DNA of 64,000 nucleotides from a virus (lineage: Duplodnaviria; Caudoviricetes), in IMG/VR virus record IMGVR_UViG_3300042431_000223, positions 1 to 64,000 of that record; one strand, written 5' to 3'. The translations under genes were made by a program, and so were the position numbers. Of this stretch, positions 1 to 64,000 are shown one piece after another. The notes under the pieces were generated by a model that was not told where the DNA came from, made no database searches, and worked only from the letters and a program-made list of their open reading frames with translations. Numbering within the stretch: position 1 is the stretch's first letter; every line of letters begins with the position of its first letter.

Positions 1-382
1 TCTCATATGCCTCAAGTAATCTCCACGCACCTCTGTTAAGTTTCTCGTGTTGTAAGATACAATTCAAGTAAGAGAAGGTCTGCCACAGAGTTTCTCTAGT
101 ACAGTTAAAGTCAGCTGCTGGTGCACAATGTCCTTTGTCCCATACATTTCCTTCGTAGTCTTTTCCGTCTGAGGTCTTAACACTATCGTTGGTGTAAAAG
201 TCCATTCCCTTACGAGGATAAGAACCTGTAGGGCATTGTACTGTGTACCACACACGTTTAGGTTGTTGGAGAACCTCTGAGTATACACAAGAGTATATTG
301 GGGTCTTGATTAGAACGCTATCTCTCTGGGCAAATAACTGACCAGACAAAAGAACAACTAGAGTTAATAATAAGTTTTTCAT
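1..382 (-). CDS. Secreted DNA/RNA non-specific endonuclease (NucA/EndA/EndoG beta-beta-alpha-Me family); 3' end runs off the window
   Basis: Not in the ORF track. Manual translation from ATG at 382: MKNLLLTLVVLLSGQLFA|QRDSVLIKTPIYSCVYSEVLQQPKRVWY...WDKGHCAPAADF...TFSYLNCILQHEKLNRGAWRLLEAYE, open to the edge. The DKGH motif (128-139), APAADF, TF.Y.N and LNRG.W..LE are family hallmarks. Sec signal peptide present. ATGA overlap with the upstream gene. Confidence 0.88.
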   Translation of the reverse strand, partial: MKNLLLTLVVLLSGQLFAQRDSVLIKTPIYSCVYSEVLQQPKRVWYTVQCPTGSYPRKGMDFYTNDSVKTSDGKDYEGNVWDKGHCAPAADFNCTRETLWQTFSYLNCILQHEKLNRGAWRLLEAYE

Positions 383-768
383 AAGATAAATCCAAGGATT
401 GCTAGGATAGACATACCTACAAAACCATACTTGTAAAGCTTCATCTCTGCATCCTTACGGTCAATGGTTCTATTAAGGTCATAGACTTCTTTTTTAGACA
501 CCTCAATCATCTGTTGATAACTAGGTACAATAGAGTCTTTGTAGAGACTGATTTGCTGACTGTCCAGGTGGATAACAGTCTTAAGAACAACTACACGTTC
601 TCTTGCTTTGATTCCCTTAAGGAATTCGTTATTCAACTCCTTTAGCGGTAAGCTGTCTAGAGATTGTGAGTAGATACTTGGTGCCGTCAATGTCAGGCAT
701 AGTATCAAGAGCAATCTGAATAGTGTCATACTTGAGGTTGATTTTTTCATAGTAACTAAATTGTTCAT
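379..768 (-). CDS. Spanin-like lysis accessory protein (signal peptide, coiled coil, C-terminal TM); true start probably 729 or 750
   Basis: Hydrophobic N-terminal segment (FRLLLILCLTLTAPSIYS|Q), helical middle, C-terminal TM (YGFVGMSILAILGFIL). Overlaps the upstream TM gene and lies two genes after the holin. Confidence 0.5.
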   Translation of the reverse strand: MNNLVTMKKSTSSMTLFRLLLILCLTLTAPSIYSQSLDSLPLKELNNEFLKGIKARERVVVLKTVIHLDSQQISLYKDSIVPSYQQMIEVSKKEVYDLNRTIDRKDAEMKLYKYGFVGMSILAILGFIL

Positions 769-949
769 GTTTAAGTGTAGATAAAGAATCTACCCTACTG
801 AGGAAACTTTCGTTGCGTTTCTCCATAGAGTCCATGTACGACATAAACTTCTCTTCACTACCGCTACTTAAACTTTGTCTTTCCCATAACAAAAAAACTA
901 TTGTGATTAGTAGTAGCCCTATAACAATAACTTCAATCTTGTTTTTCAT
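629..949 (-). CDS. i-spanin-like protein (N-terminal TM anchor, periplasmic coiled coil)
   Basis: IEVIVIGLLLITIVFLLW TM followed by an amphipathic helix; immediately downstream of the holin. Confidence 0.55.
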   Translation of the reverse strand: MKNKIEVIVIGLLLITIVFLLWERQSLSSGSEEKFMSYMDSMEKRNESFLSRVDSLSTLKHEQFSYYEKINLKYDTIQIALDTMPDIDGTKYLLTISRQLTAKGVE

Positions 950-1352
950 TTACTTTATGTTGGTCGATTTTATCTAAGATTAACTGCAGTAACTCATTCT
1001 TTATCAACCCTGCCCTAGCTGCGTTCTTGAGTGCACTTATAAGCTGAAAGAGAATAAAGGGAGCACAAATAGTCTCACTTAGCCAGAAAGTGCCCTCAAA
1101 GCCCTTCTCAATCATCAAGATACCTGTAAGCATAAATACCCACACCATTAAAGTTTTAAGCACGCTAAGAGCCTTATGCGTCTTAAAGCCTTCCATCTTA
1201 GTTCCTGCCCATACCCCAAAGAATCCATCTATAAACACAACAGCAACTACAGCTAAGTACTGTTCAGCATTATCTGCTCCTAGATTAAGGAAGTAAGCTC
1301 CTAAAAAAGCTAAGAGAGTTGTACTTGTGTATAAGAGAAAAGAGGTCTTCAT
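933..1352 (-). CDS. Phage holin (Phage_holin_4_1-like)
   Basis: 139 aa with 3-4 TM segments, a conserved-type 'VFIDGFFGVW' segment, 'FQLISALKNAARAGLI' and a charged C-terminus. Confidence 0.75.
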   Translation of the reverse strand: MKTSFLLYTSTTLLAFLGAYFLNLGADNAEQYLAVVAVVFIDGFFGVWAGTKMEGFKTHKALSVLKTLMVWVFMLTGILMIEKGFEGTFWLSETICAPFILFQLISALKNAARAGLIKNELLQLILDKIDQHKVNEKQD

Positions 1353-1391
1353 TTAACGGCCTATACCTATACCTATACCGATACCAATCAT
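1353..1391 (-). other. 12-codon mini-ORF MIGIGIGIGIGR*, possibly a relic N-terminus or a coupling peptide
   Basis: Its ATG overlaps the upstream stop (TAATG, 1393-1389). Its TAA (1355-1353) directly abuts, in frame, the holin ATG (1352). Contains a (CCTATA)3 repeat at 1360-1377. Confidence 0.5.
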
Positions 1392-1693
1392 TACTTGTAA
1401 GCAATTACACTACCTGAAGAGATAGCAAAACCAGTAATCACTCCTCCAGGAAGAAATGCTCCTTGCTTGAAGGTAATAGTACTCATACCATTGTTAGCCA
1501 ACTCAGAAACACCATTGACAAGAAATTCTGTGAATACAGTATCTTCTTGTACTACTAGTGCATTGTACCGTACGTTTGTTACAGTACCTGTGCTGTGGCG
1601 TTTAAAGCCTCCAGAGCCTACAGAAAGTCCTGTGTGTGCTGAAATCGCTCTTAAGCGTTTTGCTTGTTCGTTTACTTGTTGAAAATTATCCAT
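1391..1693 (-). CDS. Small beta-rich hypothetical protein, probably virion-associated
   Basis: 100 aa, Gly/Thr/Val-rich, ending SSGSVIAYK; first gene after the 1732-1761 promoter. Confidence 0.65.
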   Translation of the reverse strand: MDNFQQVNEQAKRLRAISAHTGLSVGSGGFKRHSTGTVTNVRYNALVVQEDTVFTEFLVNGVSELANNGMSTITFKQGAFLPGGVITGFAISSGSVIAYK

Positions 1694-1731
1694 TTTTTTT
1701 CGTTATTAAAACCGACTTGCGTCCGACATTA

Positions 1732-1761
1732 CAAATTTAACTTTAATTGTTCTTTTGTCAA
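1732..1761 (-). promoter_or_regulatory. Bacteroidota sigma70-type promoter for the lysis cassette
   Basis: Minus strand TTG(1761-1759)-N19-TAAATTTG(1739-1732), an exact match to the Flavobacterium-type consensus; intergenic. Confidence 0.8.
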
Positions 1762-57465: not shown

Positions 57466-57495
57466 CAAATATACCACTACAATATAAAAAGTCAA
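57466..57495 (-). promoter_or_regulatory. Bacteroidota sigma70-type promoter for the packaging operon
   Basis: TTG(57495-57493)-N19-TATATTTG(57473-57466); followed by CAGACAACCAACC in the 5' UTR. Confidence 0.82.
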
Positions 57496-57584: not shown

Positions 57585-58025
57585 CTACAGCTCCTTAATC
57601 AAATCAATTAAGCACTTCTCTACAGCTCTAGAATATGCTTTTTTATTGTGAGGAATTTCTTCAACCGTTAAGAACATTGCATTAACATATACAGTCTTTA
57701 CGTTCCTAGAATAATGTGTAATGTTATTAGCTGTGATAGACATATTGACTACATAATCCCTTTTTAATAACTGTATTCCTATAATGTTTATAAGCCGTTG
57801 GGGTAATGCAATTGTATTAATTGCTAGTTCTACTTTAATGCCTGTGTCACACAAAGCATATTTATTTGCAATTAATTGTTCTGCCGTAGCTACTACTCCA
57901 AAATCAACAGGTCTACCTGCTATAGTACGTAGGTGGGTGTGGTTGCGCACAGTGTCAATCTTATAACATTGAGCGTTTAGTGTAACTGCAAATGCAGTCA
58001 GTAGGATTATAATTAGTTTTTTCAT
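57585..58025 (-). CDS. Secreted protein, possibly a minimal CsgG/TolB_N-like fold
   Basis: Signal peptide MKKLIIILLTAFAVTLNA|Q; helix-strand order and C-terminal helix (KAYSRAVEKCLIDLIKEL) loosely parallel the CsgG-like gene. Confidence 0.65.
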   Translation of the reverse strand: MKKLIIILLTAFAVTLNAQCYKIDTVRNHTHLRTIAGRPVDFGVVATAEQLIANKYALCDTGIKVELAINTIALPQRLINIIGIQLLKRDYVVNMSITANNITHYSRNVKTVYVNAMFLTVEEIPHNKKAYSRAVEKCLIDLIKEL

Positions 58026-58027
58026 GG

Positions 58028-59011
58028 TTAATAAGTTACTTGTCCTGAGTATCCTGGAGCAATAAGATATAGATTTAGTGTGCCTCCTGTAGTAAGGGTT
58101 GAAGTCGTAAATGTACTTACTCCAGGATAAGTTGTGCGTACATTTACTTTAGATGCAACTATGGCATTATATTGAGCAAGTGTAAAGATTCTTACATCAG
58201 GCGCACTTCTCCATCGATTAAATCTTCCTGACTTTCTAGCAGATAAATAATACTTGTCTGCTATGTTTATTCTTCCATCATCATTAAGATCAAATCTATG
58301 ATAGGAAAGACCGTTAATTGTAGTCTTACCTAAGATAATATTAGAAATGCTTTGTATGTCTGTATTGGTGTAAGCCTGAACTCTAGTAGGAGCGTCTACC
58401 TCAATGTAATACTCTTTGGAGGGGTCGTAGGCTTCTGAGATAGAGTAATACCCTGCAGAGTTAGTGTAGATTGTTTTGTAAAGTGTCCACGAAGAAGTAG
58501 TTACTACATAATTAAATTCTAATACATAGGGAAGACTAACATTGTTAGGTAAGTCATTCCATCTACCATTAGATACAAACTGTACGTAGTCTTCGTTACC
58601 TGCGTTGTTTGGTTCTCCAGAGTTCCAGTTTTTATAAGAGTAAGTTTCTCCTGTTACCCATCTCCAAGTTCCCTCAGTTACTTCGTCTGTAAGTCCTATC
58701 CATCCTGAAGGCCAAATATTAAATATAAAACTTTGTTCTGCTGCACTAGTAATAGTTACTAAATAACCACCCATAGCTGCGCAGTTAGCCCTAGCAGTAG
58801 TCCAAGTAGCACTACCTGTAGAACGATAGTAAGAGTGTCCGTTATAATTTTGTTGGTTAGTAAATCCTGCAATAGTAGAGTTTGTTCTTCTGTAGAGTTT
58901 AACAGGTACGTTAGCTGCTCCAGAACCATTTGCATTATAGAGATACCCCGAATAATTAAATTGGGCTATTAGGGGAGTCGAGAATAAAAAAAGAACAATC
59001 AGCCATCTCAT
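58028..59011 (-). CDS. Secreted C-type lectin domain protein with a dockerin-like domain
   Basis: Signal peptide ...TPLIA|Q; CTLD (YNGHSY, GGYLVTITS, WIGLTD, W.SGEPNN, WND); dockerin-like DLNDDGRINIAD. Confidence 0.88.
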   Translation of the reverse strand: MRWLIVLFLFSTPLIAQFNYSGYLYNANGSGAANVPVKLYRRTNSTIAGFTNQQNYNGHSYYRSTGSATWTTARANCAAMGGYLVTITSAAEQSFIFNIWPSGWIGLTDEVTEGTWRWVTGETYSYKNWNSGEPNNAGNEDYVQFVSNGRWNDLPNNVSLPYVLEFNYVVTTSSWTLYKTIYTNSAGYYSISEAYDPSKEYYIEVDAPTRVQAYTNTDIQSISNIILGKTTINGLSYHRFDLNDDGRINIADKYYLSARKSGRFNRWRSAPDVRIFTLAQYNAIVASKVNVRTTYPGVSTFTTSTLTTGGTLNLYLIAPGYSGQVTY

Positions 59012-60393
59012 ATCTTTAATTTACCTCCCATTAAGATTTGATAGTTTACTATATCTTGATTTGCGATATATGTACCTCCCGCAGTCAAGCCAAATTTAAA
59101 AGTCTTAGTTATAGAGTAATTAATGTTTAGGAACGGAACTATAATAGGCTGAGACTCAAATAAACTTTCAGTGTAGTATTTTGTGTATGGTGCGTACACA
59201 CTAGCTGCGATAATGGTAGCATCAATATGTTTAGTTAGTTGTCCTTTATACATAAAACCACCAATTAATAAAGTAGAGATTACTTCTTCTTTAAATAACT
59301 CTCCATAAGAAGCGGCTGCTCCATACAGAGCTGTAAAGTTCTTTAACGAATTTACTCTTACAAAGAGCAGTGAGCCGTTGTAAGACCGAGGCATTAAGTT
59401 AATTCCAGCAGATAATACGTTAATGTGCTTATGCCCTTTTTTGTTAACGCCCATCCAAGATTGCATAGCATTAAAGTTTCCAATCTTTGCATTAACCATA
59501 TAGTCAGCAGACAATCCAATTGAAGCTGTGCCATCTCCTTTAACACGAGTGAAAGACATAGTACCACGTGCATCTTGTGCTTGGTCTTTGACTGTCTGAA
59601 CACCAACAATGTCTCCTGTAACTAGGATAGCTGGTTTCTGTGTTTCTACTTTACCTTTTGCTGCTGACTTTGCAGATGCACTTCCACCTGCTTGTTGTGT
59701 TTCAGATTTTTGTTCTTCTATTTTTTCAGGGGTTTTTTCTTCGGCTGGAGTTTCGCCTTCTCCTCCACTTCCACCACTTCCACTAGAACCTCCTTTAGAT
59801 TTGCTTCCAACACTTACTTGTCCTTGCGACGTATTGGACCCTTGTCCAGATGATTCCCCACCTTGACCAGAGTTATCCCCAGAATTACCAGTAGAATTAT
59901 TACCTCCATTACTACTAGACTTGTCGTTCGAACCTTCATTTTTACTGTCTGTTGTATTTGTTGTTCCTGAAGATGTTGTACTACCTATAGAAGTACTTGA
60001 TCCCATAGAAGTTGAAGATAAATCTAAACTAGATATTGAGTTTAAATTCATCACACTACTAACTAAAGATGTTACTGTATTAGTTGAAGTAGTGGTTGTA
60101 GTTGTTGAAAATACTCCTTCGCAGGGTTTAGAGTTCCGAAAATTCAAGTAGGTAGTATTTAACCAGTTGTCAAATGTACCGTCTTGAAGTTCTGCGTAAC
60201 TAAAACTTCTAACTTGCCTATAGTAACTAATCACTATAGGAGAGTTCATATCTGCGAATATAAACTTTAGCTCTTTTGTACACGGATCTGTGTACGAATA
60301 TGTAAAGGACTGAGCGTTTAAACCCAGTCCTATACACATAAACAAGATTAATATGTTAACTCTTAAAGACACCGTTTCTAATAAGGTTTTCAA
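59008..60393 (-). CDS. Secreted protein: small N-terminal domain, Ser/Gly/Asn linker, C-terminal outer-membrane beta-barrel-like domain
   Basis: Signal peptide ...GLGLNA|Q; two-Cys N-terminal domain; long low-complexity linker; amphipathic strands through to YQILMGGKLKI. Start codon uncertain (TTG 60393 or GTG 60372). Confidence 0.72.
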   Translation of the reverse strand: MKTLLETVSLRVNILILFMCIGLGLNAQSFTYSYTDPCTKELKFIFADMNSPIVISYYRQVRSFSYAELQDGTFDNWLNTTYLNFRNSKPCEGVFSTTTTTTSTNTVTSLVSSVMNLNSISSLDLSSTSMGSSTSIGSTTSSGTTNTTDSKNEGSNDKSSSNGGNNSTGNSGDNSGQGGESSGQGSNTSQGQVSVGSKSKGGSSGSGGSGGEGETPAEEKTPEKIEEQKSETQQAGGSASAKSAAKGKVETQKPAILVTGDIVGVQTVKDQAQDARGTMSFTRVKGDGTASIGLSADYMVNAKIGNFNAMQSWMGVNKKGHKHINVLSAGINLMPRSYNGSLLFVRVNSLKNFTALYGAAASYGELFKEEVISTLLIGGFMYKGQLTKHIDATIIAASVYAPYTKYYTESLFESQPIIVPFLNINYSITKTFKFGLTAGGTYIANQDIVNYQILMGGKLKI

Positions 60394-61045
60394 TCACTTT
60401 GGTAGTTGCTGTTTCAAGCGACTTTCGTGTTGCCTTACCTACGGTACTTTGAGAAAACTTCATATCGTCTAGAGATTTTAAGAATGACTCTCCTACTTTT
60501 ATAGATTCGCCTTCACCAGAACCAATGTAAATTTGTCCTGTTTTAGCGTCTACAAATCGAACTTGCAAACGGATAAAAGTAGTTACCACTACTTTAGCTT
60601 TTCCACCTTGTACGGTCTCGTCCTCGTCTACTGCAAAATCAGCAACGGTTACATAAACAAAGTAGTGAGCAGCTTTAATTTTTCCTTTGCCGTCAATAGG
60701 TTCTTCAAAGACTCCTTTTTTAGAAGCTTTGAACTGAGTTACCATCCTTTCCTTGATTTCACCCTTCTCTTCAGTAAATACAAAACGATTTGTCTCATCT
60801 AAATAATCTAATACGGATTCTGCAAAACCTAAACCTACATTCTTCTCTTGAAGACTTGGGTACATAGCCAACACTTTAGTCATGTCCATGCTAATTACTT
60901 GTACGTTCTTCTTAATAGAATCAGTATATCCAGACACGCTAGAAATATCTTTTTTCTCAATAACCTCATCCTCGGTTGTGGTCTTCATAGAACCACAACC
61001 ATAGATAAGGATTATTAACAGTAGGCTACCAAGGATCTTCTTCAT
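60356..61045 (-). CDS. CsgG/HfaB-family lipoprotein (start MKKIL at 61045)
   Basis: Lipoprotein signal MKKILGSLLLIILIYG|C; NVGLGFAESVLDYL...NRFVF..E; AAHYFVYVTVADF; IRLQVRFVDAKTGQI..GSGEG; FSQSTVGKATRKSLETA. Confidence 0.8.
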   Translation of the reverse strand: MKKILGSLLLIILIYGCGSMKTTTEDEVIEKKDISSVSGYTDSIKKNVQVISMDMTKVLAMYPSLQEKNVGLGFAESVLDYLDETNRFVFTEEKGEIKERMVTQFKASKKGVFEEPIDGKGKIKAAHYFVYVTVADFAVDEDETVQGGKAKVVVTTFIRLQVRFVDAKTGQIYIGSGEGESIKVGESFLKSLDDMKFSQSTVGKATRKSLETATTKVIENLIRNGVFKS

Positions 61046-61343
61046 CAGCTTGGGGTTTAGCGGCAGGAGTTGGAGCAGGAGCAGCTGCAGGTGCAGCTTT
61101 TTCTTTGATGATAATGGTTTTACCTCCACCATCAGTGTTTGCTTGTTGCTTCTGTTCGTTGTTCGTAGTGATGTTAATCACAGGTGCAGGGGCTGATACA
61201 GCAGTAGGAGTCTCAGCTTTTTCTTCGCCTCCACCTAAGTGAGTAGCAAACCAAGCACCACCTGCAGTAATTGCAGTAGTGATTGCTCCAATAATGGCTT
61301 TTTTAGCAGCGGACATACCGCCTTCTTCTTTTTCTTCTGACAT
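61026..61343 (-). CDS. Single-pass membrane protein with a Pro/Ala-rich tail (start MSEEK at 61343)
   Basis: AIIGAITTAITAGGAWFA TM followed by APAPVINITTNN and APAAAPAPTPAAKP. Confidence 0.7.
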   Translation of the reverse strand: MSEEKEEGGMSAAKKAIIGAITTAITAGGAWFATHLGGGEEKAETPTAVSAPAPVINITTNNEQKQQANTDGGGKTIIIKEKAAPAAAPAPTPAAKPQADEEDPW

Positions 61344-61347
61344 AATA

Positions 61348-61698
61348 TTATGGATTAGTTGTGTTTGACAAAGATACACCATCTTCCTCATCTACTTTTT
61401 GGATAAGCATTTTGTCTCTGTCTTCAGAATTGAACCAGTAGTCAACTACTTTGTTCAAGTTACCGACAAATGCTCCTAAGAGGATAAGCAACATTTCTTT
61501 CCAGTCTTCTCCAATAGATGCTCCCAAGAAGACAGCAGCATTAATACCGACAATGATTAGGGTAAACAAGCCTAACACAATGGCAGTGATTCTCCAACGG
61601 TTAGCTTGCATTTGTTGTAGCATGTAGTAGAAACGATTGTTATCTGGTACTGCTACGGGCTCTGCTTGGCCAAAACCAAGTTTGTCTTTTAGTTTCAT
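61348..61698 (-). CDS. Two-TM membrane protein
   Basis: ITAIVLGLFTLIIVGINAAVFL and MLLILLGAFVGNL segments; ATGA overlap with the upstream gene. Confidence 0.72.
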   Translation of the reverse strand: MKLKDKLGFGQAEPVAVPDNNRFYYMLQQMQANRWRITAIVLGLFTLIIVGINAAVFLGASIGEDWKEMLLILLGAFVGNLNKVVDYWFNSEDRDKMLIQKVDEEDGVSLSNTTNP

Positions 61699-63584
61699 AT
61701 GATTAATAGTTTAGAATCTAGGACTTGTTTTTCTGTTTTAAGAGTTAAGATATAAACTCCGTCAGGTAATCTTTCCAAATCTACACTGTATCTATAACTT
61801 CCTACAGGCATGTGCTTGTCTAGAATATTTTGGACTAACTGACCTATTTCATTGTACAAAGACAAGTTTACGTCAGACTCTTCAGCTATCTTGAATTGTA
61901 CTTGAATGGCACCTTCAGAAGGATTTGGAAAAGCAATTAAATCACTTACTTGGTTCATGGATACAGTTCCTTTTCTACGAACCTCAATGATACCCATAGT
62001 AGGCGTAATTACCATGTCTCTTGCTTTGTCATCACCTACGTATTTTTCAGATGTCCAGATAGCTGCAGTAGCCCAAGAGTCTTGAGGTTTCTTAGCAATA
62101 AACTGAAGCGTAAATACAGCCTCTCCGTCATTCAATAGATTAGAATTGGTTAAGTCTGCGCCGCCCCAAGAAACAATTCCATTAGAACGGTTAGTGTAAG
62201 AAGTCCATTTCATAATCTTTTCAGTTACTTCTACGTTCTTAAATTCTAAGTAAGCAGTGTCGTACTTAAGATCTAACTGAAGAGCACCCAAAGATTTTCC
62301 ATTTGTAAGAACTTTAACTGGTACGTTTACTAAGTTTCCACTCTCAACGGTAATTTTCGGCATGTTAATTTCTACTTTATCTAAAGTAGGATTGTCGTAA
62401 GATACTGTTTGGTCAATAATGTATTTCTTAGCATTTGCTTGGTTGACAATCTTAATAGGAGTCAAACGAGCCATCTTAAATCCAGTAGAGTTTGCATCCC
62501 CTTTTACTGCTACGTAATAGGTGATAGAGTCTCTACCATCAATAGTGTAATTAAAGTTATTTACTGTAGCATAAGTTGAAGTTAAGTTAGATGTAGCTCC
62601 GTTAATTGAGTTGTACTCAGCAACAGTAAAGAACATTACATCTTTCTTAGAGTTAGGCCAAGAAGTAAATCTACCTGCTAATCTTCCGTATACTGAGTAT
62701 ACGTCGGCAATATTAATGTCTCCAGTAGTTCCGTTTACGTCCATTGTATAGTAGTCAAATCCTGTTGGAGTGTATTGCCCTAAAATAGATTGGTTAATCT
62801 TCTGTGCATCCGCAGTAGAGAATACGTTACCTGGAGTCATTGTGTCTCCTTTAACGACCATGCGGACATCCCAATATGTAGTATCTAAAAATTCTCTAAA
62901 CACAACATGTCCTACAGAGTTAGTTGCTTTAGCATCTACTTGAGTCCAAGACCCAGTTGGTGCTTTCTTTTCTAAAGACACCCACAAGTTCTTAGCATCA
63001 GAACCTGTTACGTTCTTAAATTTAGCAGCAAAGCGAAGAACCTTCTGATTGAAACGACCACCATAAGAATAAACTACTAACGTAGTATCGTTACCCCAGT
63101 TAGTAGCAGCTTTGTTTGCAAATGATTTCACACCTGCAACTTTCATAGTTTTGATAGAATCTAAGTTGTTCCATACAGCACTACTAGCATGCGTAAATGT
63201 CAAGTCAAAAGTTGCTCCGTTAGAATAGTTAAAAGTAGCACTAGAACCTGTGTACGCTAAAGTTACAGTTAAGAATCCTTGTGCGTTACTATCTACATAC
63301 TGAAGATATTGGTCTGAAGTAGAAATTTTCAAGGAAGGTACTACAGCAGTAAATGCAGTGTTATCGTAGAATATACGAAACTGCATACCTGTGATCTTTT
63401 CAGAAGTAGAAGTGTTATAGAAGTGAAGGGGTGCTACAGTCTGTCCTACAGTAGTTGTAGCCACTTGATAACCTGAGTCAATAACAACCCAATGTCCCGT
63501 ACCTGGAGAAGTGTTTGCACTTTGTGCAAATAAGTCAGTAGCCAAGGTTATTACCCCGACTACAAATAGAATTAATTTTTTCAT
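61695..63584 (-). CDS. T9SS cargo protein: signal peptide, cohesin-like, Cna-B-like, dockerin-like, cohesin, type A CTD
   Basis: SP ...TDLFA|Q; ITGMQFRIFYDNTAF and LGALQLDLKYDTAYLEF cohesin patterns; STADAQKINQSILG...DVNGTTGDINIAD dockerin-like segment; CTD AFPNPS...SLYNEIGQLV...LPDGVYILTL...KLLII. Confidence 0.88.
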   Translation of the reverse strand: MKKLILFVVGVITLATDLFAQSANTSPGTGHWVVIDSGYQVATTTVGQTVAPLHFYNTSTSEKITGMQFRIFYDNTAFTAVVPSLKISTSDQYLQYVDSNAQGFLTVTLAYTGSSATFNYSNGATFDLTFTHASSAVWNNLDSIKTMKVAGVKSFANKAATNWGNDTTLVVYSYGGRFNQKVLRFAAKFKNVTGSDAKNLWVSLEKKAPTGSWTQVDAKATNSVGHVVFREFLDTTYWDVRMVVKGDTMTPGNVFSTADAQKINQSILGQYTPTGFDYYTMDVNGTTGDINIADVYSVYGRLAGRFTSWPNSKKDVMFFTVAEYNSINGATSNLTSTYATVNNFNYTIDGRDSITYYVAVKGDANSTGFKMARLTPIKIVNQANAKKYIIDQTVSYDNPTLDKVEINMPKITVESGNLVNVPVKVLTNGKSLGALQLDLKYDTAYLEFKNVEVTEKIMKWTSYTNRSNGIVSWGGADLTNSNLLNDGEAVFTLQFIAKKPQDSWATAAIWTSEKYVGDDKARDMVITPTMGIIEVRRKGTVSMNQVSDLIAFPNPSEGAIQVQFKIAEESDVNLSLYNEIGQLVQNILDKHMPVGSYRYSVDLERLPDGVYILTLKTEKQVLDSKLLII

Positions 63585-64000
63585 TGTCTATATTTTTGCA
63601 GTTTTTCATAAAGATTTGTCAGTAACCATGACTCAGGGGTTGGAATTTTTTGGATGAAGGATAACTCGTACATGTAGCATTTATATTCTTCTTCCGCTTC
63701 ACTCATGACAATGCCTTCTTTTGCGTAGAAAAGATGTTGACTCTCATGAACTAAAACGCAAGCTAAGTTGTTAATTGAATTTAACTTAATGTCTGCGTCT
63801 GCTACAAGTATGGTATAGCGACCTTCAACTATACCTGTGGAAGAAAAAGAACTGTTCCAAAAATCAATCCGCTCACATACTTCAGTAAAAACTATGTACT
63901 TATCGATATCATAGTTTTTAATTAGGCTGATTGCCGAATCAATTTTTAAGTCCCAGCCATCCCCTGCCTTTGACAATGTTTGACAAAAGCAGGAGTTGAC
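63581..64000 (-). CDS. Putative secreted zinc metallopeptidase; 5' end lies outside the window
   Basis: The frame stays open to base 64000 (VNSCFC|QTLSKAGDGW...), consistent with the tail of a signal peptide; LVHESQH (HExxH) plus downstream EEYKCY. Confidence 0.65.
   Translation of the reverse strand, partial: VNSCFCQTLSKAGDGWDLKIDSAISLIKNYDIDKYIVFTEVCERIDFWNSSFSSTGIVEGRYTILVADADIKLNSINNLACVLVHESQHLFYAKEGIVMSEAEEEYKCYMYELSFIQKIPTPESWLLTNLYEKLQKYRQ

Follow-up and report, generated by a model that had tools for sequence, protein, structure and literature searches.

The stretch of DNA considered here, hereafter the window, comprises the first 64 kb of a 75,005 bp IMG/VR record (IMGVR_UViG_3300042431_000223) with a CheckV completeness of 64%. 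Its large terminase (phrog_6681, 1e-96) and portal protein (phrog_6547, 1e-97) place it nearest to crAss-like and Cellulophaga phages, and the source is an uncultured crAss-like phage of Flavobacterium-type bacteria. From position 57585 to contig position 64039 lies a block of eight packed, co-oriented minus-strand open reading frames (ORFs), here named P1 to P8 and together called the cassette. Each of the eight products carries a signal peptide, a lipobox or a transmembrane (TM) segment; a loose export heuristic flagged 17 of the 63 genes of the contig, and the eight consecutive ones among these are P1–P8. An earlier note on this DNA, made from the sequence alone, had described eight contiguous genes for exported or membrane proteins, a description borne out by the ORFs, by their signals and by a gene order found in 85 variants of the locus. 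From the export signals the products are predicted, as they were in that note, to go to the host envelope and not to the virion. The cassette is tentatively read below as encoding an envelope-spanning anchor that would display a surface glycan-binding arm late in infection.

Gene arrangement and export signals

In the minus-strand direction of transcription, three tail-fibre-like genes are followed by a holin-like gene, an endolysin, P1–P8 and a 150-nt gap, 3' of which lie a helix-turn-helix (HTH) gene, small genes and the terminase gene (Table 1). The genes overlap by 4 nt at the P1/P2, P2/P3 and P6/P7 junctions, by 20 nt at P4/P5, and by ~17 nt at P5/P6 if P6 begins at the GTG start that is used by its relatives; the remaining junctions within the cassette are spacers of 2–4 nt. 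GC content is even across the region, and no tRNA genes were found within the cassette region. As judged from the translations and our own heuristic, P1, P2, P6, P7 and P8 each begin with a leader of the signal peptidase I type followed by Gln, as the earlier note had observed. Gln-rule signal peptides have also been noted in Porphyromonas phages (PMC10367356).

Table 1. Coordinates of the cassette genes, the adjoining lysis genes and two promoter-like motifs (window positions unless marked as contig positions).
Feature	Position	Strand	Remarks
P1	63581..64000; full gene contig 63581-64039	(-)	152 aa; gene truncated by window end
P2	61695..63584	(-)	629 aa
P3	61348..61698	(-)	116 aa
P4	61026..61343	(-)	105 aa
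P5	60356..61045	(-)	229 aa
P6	59008..60372	(-)	likely start GTG 60372; ORF listing starts at TTG 60393
P7	58028..59011	(-)	327 aa
P8	57585..58025	(-)	146 aa; final gene of the unit
Endolysin	contig 64040-64690	(-)	phrog_3000 (1e-35), phrog_33083 (2e-13)
Holin-like gene	contig 64693-64941	(-)	82 aa, two TM segments
Promoter-like motif	57466..57495	(-)	TTGAC-N17-TATATTTG, TAnnTTTG at -7; within the 150-nt gap 3' of P8
Promoter-like motif	contig 64965-64994	(-)	23 nt upstream of the holin-like start codon

Cohesin and lectin proteins

P2 consists in order of a signal peptide (cleaved as LFA/Q), a first cohesin domain (~aa 43-162; E 3e-5, 24.6 bits), a beta-sandwich with a dockerin-like calcium loop, a second cohesin domain (aa 405-522; E 1.5e-9, 38.6 bits; cut-off 24.1 for both) and a C-terminal domain of type A of T9SS, the type IX secretion system. 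The last was matched both by Por_Secre_tail (PF18962; 1.2e-10, 42 bits, cut-off 27) and by TIGR04183 (6e-9, 35.7 bits, cut-off 23). By its Sec leader and sorting domain P2 fits a type A T9SS cargo, and its export by this route is predicted. Flavobacterium, the host genus of the cultured relative vB_FspM_immuto (immuto) discussed below, has a T9SS.

P7 is built from a signal peptide, a C-type lectin head and a beta-sandwich with dockerin-like module of the same kind as in P2. Its head is recognized by Lectin_C (PF00059, E 3.3e-18) and contains both the EPN and the WND motifs, which every lectin-type head retains (46 of 46). The EPN motif predicts ligands of the mannose or GlcNAc type. With its single Cys, P7 lacks the conserved disulfide framework of C-type lectins. 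Residues 210-341 of P2 and 172-298 of P7 are paralogous (~130 aa, 36% identity, E 2e-17), with one canonical dockerin-like calcium loop in P7, DLNDDGRINIAD, and one with an insertion in P2; dockerins proper have such calcium-binding segments in duplicate. The cohesin and T9SS C-terminal domains of P2 and the C-type lectin of P7 had been named in the earlier note, together with a CsgG-like lipoprotein (P5) and a barrel (P6), and the tools applied here agree on all of them.

P1 is a secreted protein with a signal peptide. It had been called a peptidase; what it offers in this direction is an HExxH motif (H98-E99-S100-x-H102) that is invariant among 23 homologues, and no match was found for it in Pfam, NCBIfam or PDB. 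The only leads, from Atlas, are DUF6647 and PF13699, and comparison of the P1 and P8 profiles with PDB sequences gave nothing usable.

CsgG-fold lipoprotein P5 and its small paralogue P8

The P5 leader ends in a lipobox, IYGC, followed by GS, with a family consensus of L-x-x-G-C. P5 itself has no Pfam match at E<0.1, and an exhaustive search gave 155 clusters at E<=0.001; the full-length remote relatives match Pfam CsgG in 16 of 39 cases (best 1.9e-25) and LpoB in 7 of 39, and the P5 family profile matches E. coli CsgG in PDB at 2.9e-5. The AlphaFold2 (AF2) model of P5, with a predicted local distance difference test (pLDDT) score of 83.8, has CsgG structures as its top Foldseek matches (4uv2, 4uv3 and 6l7a; E 2e-7, probability 1.0), followed by FlgT, GNA1162, PelC and LptE, and in BFVD it is best matched by a phage protein that bears the name CsgG. 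P5 is thus a predicted outer-membrane lipoprotein of the CsgG/LpoB/PelC/LptE fold superfamily.

In a CsgG-type pore each subunit contributes two amphipathic membrane hairpins to a 36-strand barrel, and the equivalents of these hairpins in P5 can be located by HMMER alignment. The first hairpin is bracketed by well-aligned blocks, between which P5 and all 38 relatives have a fixed segment of 19 residues; this segment carries several charged residues in P5 and most relatives (6 in P5), and its counterpart in E. coli CsgG is visibly longer. The equivalent of the second hairpin, after the last shared strand, spans ~22 residues in P5, 8 of them charged. P5 is therefore doubtful as a curli-type pore, the role that the earlier note had mentioned for CsgG: judged from this alignment it is unlikely to build a CsgG-type barrel and resembles instead those members of the superfamily that do not form pores themselves but partner with barrels. 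Y62-P63 of P5 stand opposite the Tyr-Pro in the constriction loop of CsgG, and P63 is nearly invariant in the family. CsgE, CsgF, CsgA and CsgB were searched for among the eight products in Pfam, PHROGs and NCBIfam without a match.

P8 is secreted and non-lipidated. A direct profile-profile link between P8 and the P5 family was tried and did not hold (probability 0.7%). At the P8 position of a distant marine relative (L167) lies a 170-aa secreted protein that matches the P5 family (97.7%, E 1.5e-12) and also matches the P8 family over its full length (91.3%, E 1e-6). Because this protein matches both families, P8 is best described as a predicted small, non-lipidated, CsgG-like paralogue of P5.

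Outside the cassette, four remote P5 relatives (P0151, P0177, P0184 and P0248) are fused to a caspase (Peptidase_C14) or a Ser/Thr kinase. These fusions suggest that the CsgG-like fold may also serve as a periplasmic or envelope module of signalling or cell-death proteins.

Barrel P6 and the inner-membrane proteins P3 and P4

P6 comprises a signal peptide, a 65-aa N-domain, a poly-Thr run, a Ser/Gly/Asn linker and a C-terminal barrel (aa 247-461). In alignment the N-domain is conserved with two invariant Cys residues, the linker is hypervariable and the C-terminal domain is highly conserved. The AF2 model has 12 strands at 255-459 (core pLDDT 70-82); all VIA matches are membrane barrels (Z 11-14.6; PelBC, Z 13.7), Foldseek returned TamA, EspP, FapF, NanC and KdgM, and the matching Atlas models are autotransporter, KdgM, DUF481 and YaiO barrels. 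Residues 247-461 are accordingly modelled as a predicted 12-strand outer-membrane beta-barrel. Set against a type Va autotransporter (PF03797), whose 12-strand barrel has an alpha-helical plug, P6 has 12 predicted strands and finds autotransporter barrels in Atlas and VIA, but it gives no Pfam hit and no helix is predicted before the barrel.

A partnership between P5 and P6 is suggested by their modelled folds, as PelC and LptE are among the fold matches of P5 and PelBC is among those of P6. A cellular P5 relative, P0251, in which a CsgG-like domain is fused to an outer-membrane protein barrel domain, also fits such a partnership. As in PelC-PelB and LptE-LptD, the gene of an outer-membrane barrel stands beside that of a lipoprotein from this fold superfamily. 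In contrast to those systems, neither protein belongs to them at the sequence level, no polysaccharide or lipopolysaccharide pathway genes are present, and the P6 barrel is small (12 strands) and bears a tethered N-domain.

P3 is a predicted inner-membrane protein of holin-like topology, with two hydrophobic segments (one strong, one weaker, from the translation and heuristic) and an acidic C-terminal tail; its one match, to phrog_38564, is weak. P4 is predicted to span the membrane once, by a moderately hydrophobic segment, with its N-terminus inside and a Pro/Ala-rich stalk in the periplasm. Its conserved features are an acidic N-terminus, a Gly/Ala/Thr-rich membrane segment and a C-terminal DPW, and it matches no family in Pfam, PHROGs or NCBIfam. 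Other proteins stand at its position in distant relatives. That of L167 has a TM segment and a coiled coil, with a weak match to an Rz-like spanin (5.7e-4, 21 bits); it was considered as a P4 homologue and rejected for want of detectable homology, and its Rz-like appearance therefore reflects replacement at the same position. The anchor of L170 is an intermediate form, with a Pro/Ala tail after a short coiled coil, and a protein of L169 has a match to P4 within the first 35 residues of the latter (80% probability). Since L167, L169 and L170 all have anchors at the P4 position, a type II inner-membrane protein reaching towards the lipoprotein is a constant of the system.

Distribution, lineages and exchange

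P5 and P6 each retrieve many IMG/VR contigs, with more than 800 protein matches to P5 (E<=0.001), and a tblastn map shows the P1–P8 order kept in every long locus, so that the genes do co-occur elsewhere as a unit, as the earlier note had proposed to check. When loci were collapsed by distinct P5 nucleotide sequence, 85 variants remained, which split over two lineages sharing no large terminase (TerL). Lineage 1 consists of crAss-like genomes of 110-122 kb whose TerL is 72-92% identical to that of the source phage. Lineage 2 consists of complete, Immutovirus-like genomes of 165-180 kb, in which neither a homologue of the source phage's TerL nor Terminase_6C was found and whose helicase shows 63% identity to the one encoded by Flavobacterium phage immuto. 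Here the cassette stands in a tightly packed order of helicase, ribonucleotide reductase, P1–P8, a homologous holin-like gene and a different endolysin (PG_binding_1 and GH19; phrog_181, 1.5e-64).

Between the two lineages identity is 82-88% for P5, 72-79% for P3, 57-74% for P2 and 33-40% for P8; across both together, P3 ranges from 72 to 97%, and L169 and L170, which are marine relatives, have it as well. In the crAss-like lineage TerL is often less well conserved than the holin-like gene, the endolysin, P2, P3 and P5, one contig (L010) having 73% identity in TerL against 92% in P5 and 96% in P3. Such genes outconserving TerL point to exchange of the module between phages. In marine contigs with P5 identities of 33-38%, the cohesin/C-terminal-domain protein, P3, the anchor, the lipoprotein, the barrel and the small paralogue are all retained. 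The conserved core is P2, P3, P4, P5, P6 and P8; P1 is optional and the head of P7 is swappable.

The head of P7 was surveyed in 91 distinct P7 proteins. A C-type lectin is present in 55, an unassigned 241-aa domain in 21, a GEVED domain (2.7e-14) in 14 and a PA14 domain (4.4e-6) in 1, the tblastn count by head type giving more of the last. Because lectin, PA14 and 241-aa heads each occur in both gene arrangements, the head has been exchanged repeatedly, with the dockerin-like module retained.

A scan of cellular genomes (one genome for each of 185,579 species) returned a single match, on a 16.5-kb contig of a metagenome-assembled genome (MAG), and on this ground the cassette is viral and not cellular. 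More than 30 contigs retain the junction towards the terminase. These two results, with the even GC content, answer the concern in the earlier note that the region might be a chimeric fragment of host DNA. The one MAG contig (L147, RFPL01000028.1, labelled Sphingomonadaceae; P5 identity 85%) probably comes from a phage and was misbinned. A 307-kb JGI sequence, Ga0620987_00323 (L144/L146), carries the cassette twice, 183 kb apart with identical neighbours, and is probably a concatemer assembly of a ~183-kb phage genome.

By TerL the closest cultured relative of the source phage is Leptolyngbya phage Lbo-JY46 (L003, PP438436; 39%), which has a large tRNA array where the source phage has the cassette. 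The reported host of Lbo-JY46 is a cyanobacterium, whereas the crAss-like phages to which it is related infect Bacteroidota.

Transcription unit and linkage to lysis genes

The pattern TTGAC-N15-22-TAnnTTTG, which we take to agree with the Bacteroidota promoter elements -33 TTG and -7 TAnnTTTG, occurs at five sites on the contig against ~0.9 expected. All five (minus strand, contig positions 1732, 41079, 57466, 64965 and 70505) lie between genes and on the coding strand, and the motif recurs at equivalent positions in G5, a relative with a complete genome. By these sites the late region appears to be split into five units of transcription. One site stands 5' of the holin-like gene and the next after P8, where it marks the start of the following unit from the HTH gene to terminase; as there are no others between, the holin-like gene, the endolysin and P1–P8 are predicted to form one ten-gene transcription unit. 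The earlier note had treated the cassette as an operon in its own right, a view that gives way to its being the predicted continuation of the holin-like/endolysin unit. The swappable glycan-binding heads fit the idea, put forward there, of a surface complex that binds glycans. A scan for sigma-70 and terminator consensus sequences gave counts at or below shuffled expectation; a 5-bp hairpin without a T-run lies 3' of P8 (57561-57574). The promoter-like motif was not found in the lineage 2 genomes.

A holin or endolysin homologue lies within 3 kb of the cassette in 78 of the 85 variants, upstream in 32 and downstream in 46; in the other 7 the flanks are too short for adjacency to be judged. Where at least 3 kb could be read on both sides, such a neighbour is present in 48 of 48 variants. 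In immuto, by contrast, the cassette lies at 10.5-16.4 kb and the endolysin and holin at 43.7-44.8 kb, 28 kb apart. Linkage to lysis genes is thus near-universal among close relatives and not universal overall.

Elsewhere in the source phage, a possible second lysis or exit locus lies on the minus strand at window positions 2-1761, behind the promoter-like motif at 1732-1761. It contains a Phage_holin_4_1 holin (933-1352, E 3e-5), a 129-aa signal-peptide protein (379-768) and a DNA/RNA non-specific endonuclease (2-382, 1e-16); a secreted nuclease of the latter family is found inside or beside the envelope cassette in L169, L070 and immuto (gp012). On the plus strand, small predicted lipoprotein and secreted-protein genes (contig 72989-73156 and 74411-74695, beyond the window) lie in a divergently transcribed and presumably early region, and similar small lipoproteins are also present in G5.

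Relation to known phage systems

The earlier note knew of no equivalent in phages. This proves too strong, as parts of the cassette have published precedents and a version of it is present in a cultured phage, although a search of the literature for the combined cassette found no paper on it. Phage-encoded CsgG and CsgF were reported in the Methylophilales phage Melnitz and in pelagimyophages, with a proposed role in lysis timing (Buchholz et al. 2022, PMC9004378). The cassette shares with these a phage CsgG-fold outer-membrane lipoprotein without curli subunits, whose gene position suggested a link to lysis in those phages. It differs from them in having no CsgF, in a P5 without the membrane hairpins and in its Bacteroidota hosts, and it adds a barrel and an inner-membrane anchor, as well as a further CsgG-like protein, a lectin and a T9SS cohesin protein. 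In "Cryophage", T9SS cargo genes were described from its flexible islands (Bellas et al. 2020, PMC7468147), where, as here, type A sorting domains occur with highly variable binding or enzymatic modules including PA14. The Cryophage cargoes are single variable genes (an endoglucanase, a GH39 protein and a PA14 protein), whereas the cargo of the present cassette is a conserved cohesin scaffold within a fixed set of genes, the variable head belonging to a partner without the C-terminal domain.

The only cultured phage found to carry the cassette is Flavobacterium phage immuto (NC_055915), in gp013-gp019, where the genes are annotated by domain name only. Its version includes a lectin protein 50% identical to P7, a cohesin/C-terminal-domain protein, a P5 homologue (44%), P6-like and P8-like proteins, and a short ORF (gp016) at the position of the anchor. 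Unlike in the source phage, the order is rearranged with P7 first, and P1 and P3 were not detected. The P2 homologue of immuto is divided between gp014 and gp015 (L164 4805-6620; residues 1-370 and 384-627), which may reflect a frameshift, a mistake in sequencing or a genuine split.

Function of the cassette

We tentatively favour the view that the cassette is a horizontally mobile, phage-borne set of host-envelope genes. It would be co-transcribed with the holin-like gene and the endolysin, and for that reason made late in infection. Its products would be routed by Sec and signal peptidase I, leaving an N-terminal Gln, with the lipoprotein pathway serving the lipoprotein and the beta-barrel assembly machinery (BAM) the barrel. 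In the anchor part, P4 (with P3) would sit in the inner membrane and reach the outer-membrane lipoprotein P5, which may in turn pair with the barrel P6 in the manner of PelC with PelB or LptE with LptD; P8 would join this part as a soluble paralogue of P5. In the surface arm, P2 exported by the T9SS would present its two cohesins, and P7, sharing the dockerin-like calcium module with P2, would bear the exchangeable glycan-binding head, here a C-type lectin of the EPN type. The complex may bind a variable surface glycan on infected cells and their debris, leading to adhesion or to masking of receptors; the earlier note had put forward aggregation, receptor masking and grazer evasion as possible functions. 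This view is preferred because even distant relatives retain the T9SS cohesin protein as part of the core and because the swapped heads point to a variable external ligand.

Several observations weigh on the other side. The dockerin named in the earlier note is not reached by Dockerin_1, which scores 15-16 bits against a cut-off of 22.9, in P7 only (E 0.011-0.028). P7 has a Sec signal only, which leaves its route to the surface unexplained. In the few loci that can be compared, the type of P7 head shows no link to the type of the upstream tail fibre; since every compared locus has its own fibre cluster and PA14 heads stand alongside four fibre types, no association of head and fibre can be claimed, an outcome that lends nothing to the idea of receptor masking. 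The strict linkage to lysis genes in close relatives and the spanin-like layout of P4 and P5 also count against the favoured view, and both point to a role in lysis instead.

That role could be to replace the spanins, the chief alternative, possible though rather unlikely. The core proteins P3, P4, P5, P6 and P8 would then carry out the outer-membrane step of lysis, the inner-membrane anchor being tied to a lipoprotein-barrel complex that breaks or opens the outer membrane after the endolysin has cut the wall, with P2 and P7 as accessories. The predicted shared transcript agrees with this, as does the proximity of lysis genes on either side of the cassette and with two endolysin families; no canonical spanin was seen in the lysis operon among the PHROGs matches, and P5 and P3 are more conserved than TerL. 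As in the lambda Rz/Rz1 spanins, the gene of a type II inner-membrane protein overlaps a lipoprotein gene within a lysis operon, and a distant relative (L167) has an Rz-like anchor with a TM segment and coiled coil. The Rz-like match is weak, however, and P4 itself differs from Rz in its Pro/Ala stalk, in having no coiled coil and in having no PHROG hit. Mature P5, at ~212 aa, is a large globular CsgG-fold protein unlike a short, Pro-rich outer-membrane spanin, and the lambda pair has no counterpart of the conserved barrel, paralogue and cohesin protein. The distance between the cassette and the endolysin/holin pair in immuto is also at odds with a spanin substitute, as are a T9SS-exported cohesin protein in the core of even distant relatives and swappable lectin heads of no obvious use in rupturing a membrane.

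The surface arm and the spanin-like function could both be true at once. In one such scheme, which we regard as unlikely, phages of Flavobacteriia would have in common a mobile envelope machine, served by several export routes, in place of spanins: the anchor, the two CsgG-fold proteins and the tethered barrel would breach the outer membrane, and the T9SS-exported cohesin scaffold with its interchangeable lectin heads would then keep progeny off debris or capture neighbouring host cells.

A curli-type (type VIII) pore is a quite improbable explanation. P5 would form a channel that exports P6, P7 or P8, or else a gated pore or pinholin that times lysis, as the precedent and lysis-timing hypothesis of PMC9004378 would allow. 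The fold and profile similarity of P5 to CsgG, the aligned Tyr-Pro of the constriction loop and the name of the top BFVD match speak for it; the short, charged equivalents of the two hairpins, the missing curli partners and the failure of P5 itself to reach Pfam CsgG speak against. Just as improbable is superinfection exclusion or defence, by which surface and periplasmic proteins would bar competing phages from the infected cell. A predicted envelope location for every product and a variable binding head would suit such a function. So would the further small lipoproteins and secreted proteins that these phages encode in their early regions, and the transfer of the module among unrelated phages with hosts probably in common. 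The late expression implied by co-transcription with lysis genes would be poor timing in a virulent phage, and eight genes are far more than known exclusion systems employ. Finally, the position of the block between tail-fibre genes and the terminase gene might suggest a chimeric host fragment or virion structural proteins, but this is very improbable given junctions that are identical across dozens of independent contigs (complete, terminally repeated genomes among them), the even GC content, the lack of the cassette in cellular genomes save one short MAG contig, an export signal on every product, and the siting of the lineage 2 cassette among replication and lysis genes.

The cassette bears on the passage of Bacteroidota phages through the outer membrane and on late changes to the host surface. 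Plentiful in aquatic viromes, it passes between phage lineages that are not related to each other, is strongly constrained and draws on four host export routes within a single operon. As a cultured phage-host pair, immuto with Flavobacterium sp. LMO8, has a version of the cassette, its function is directly testable. A lysis device would be a new solution to the outer-membrane step, and with a surface lectin scaffold virulent phages would have a novel means of changing host adhesion or of protecting their progeny; a combined exit-and-spread system would have no described counterpart.

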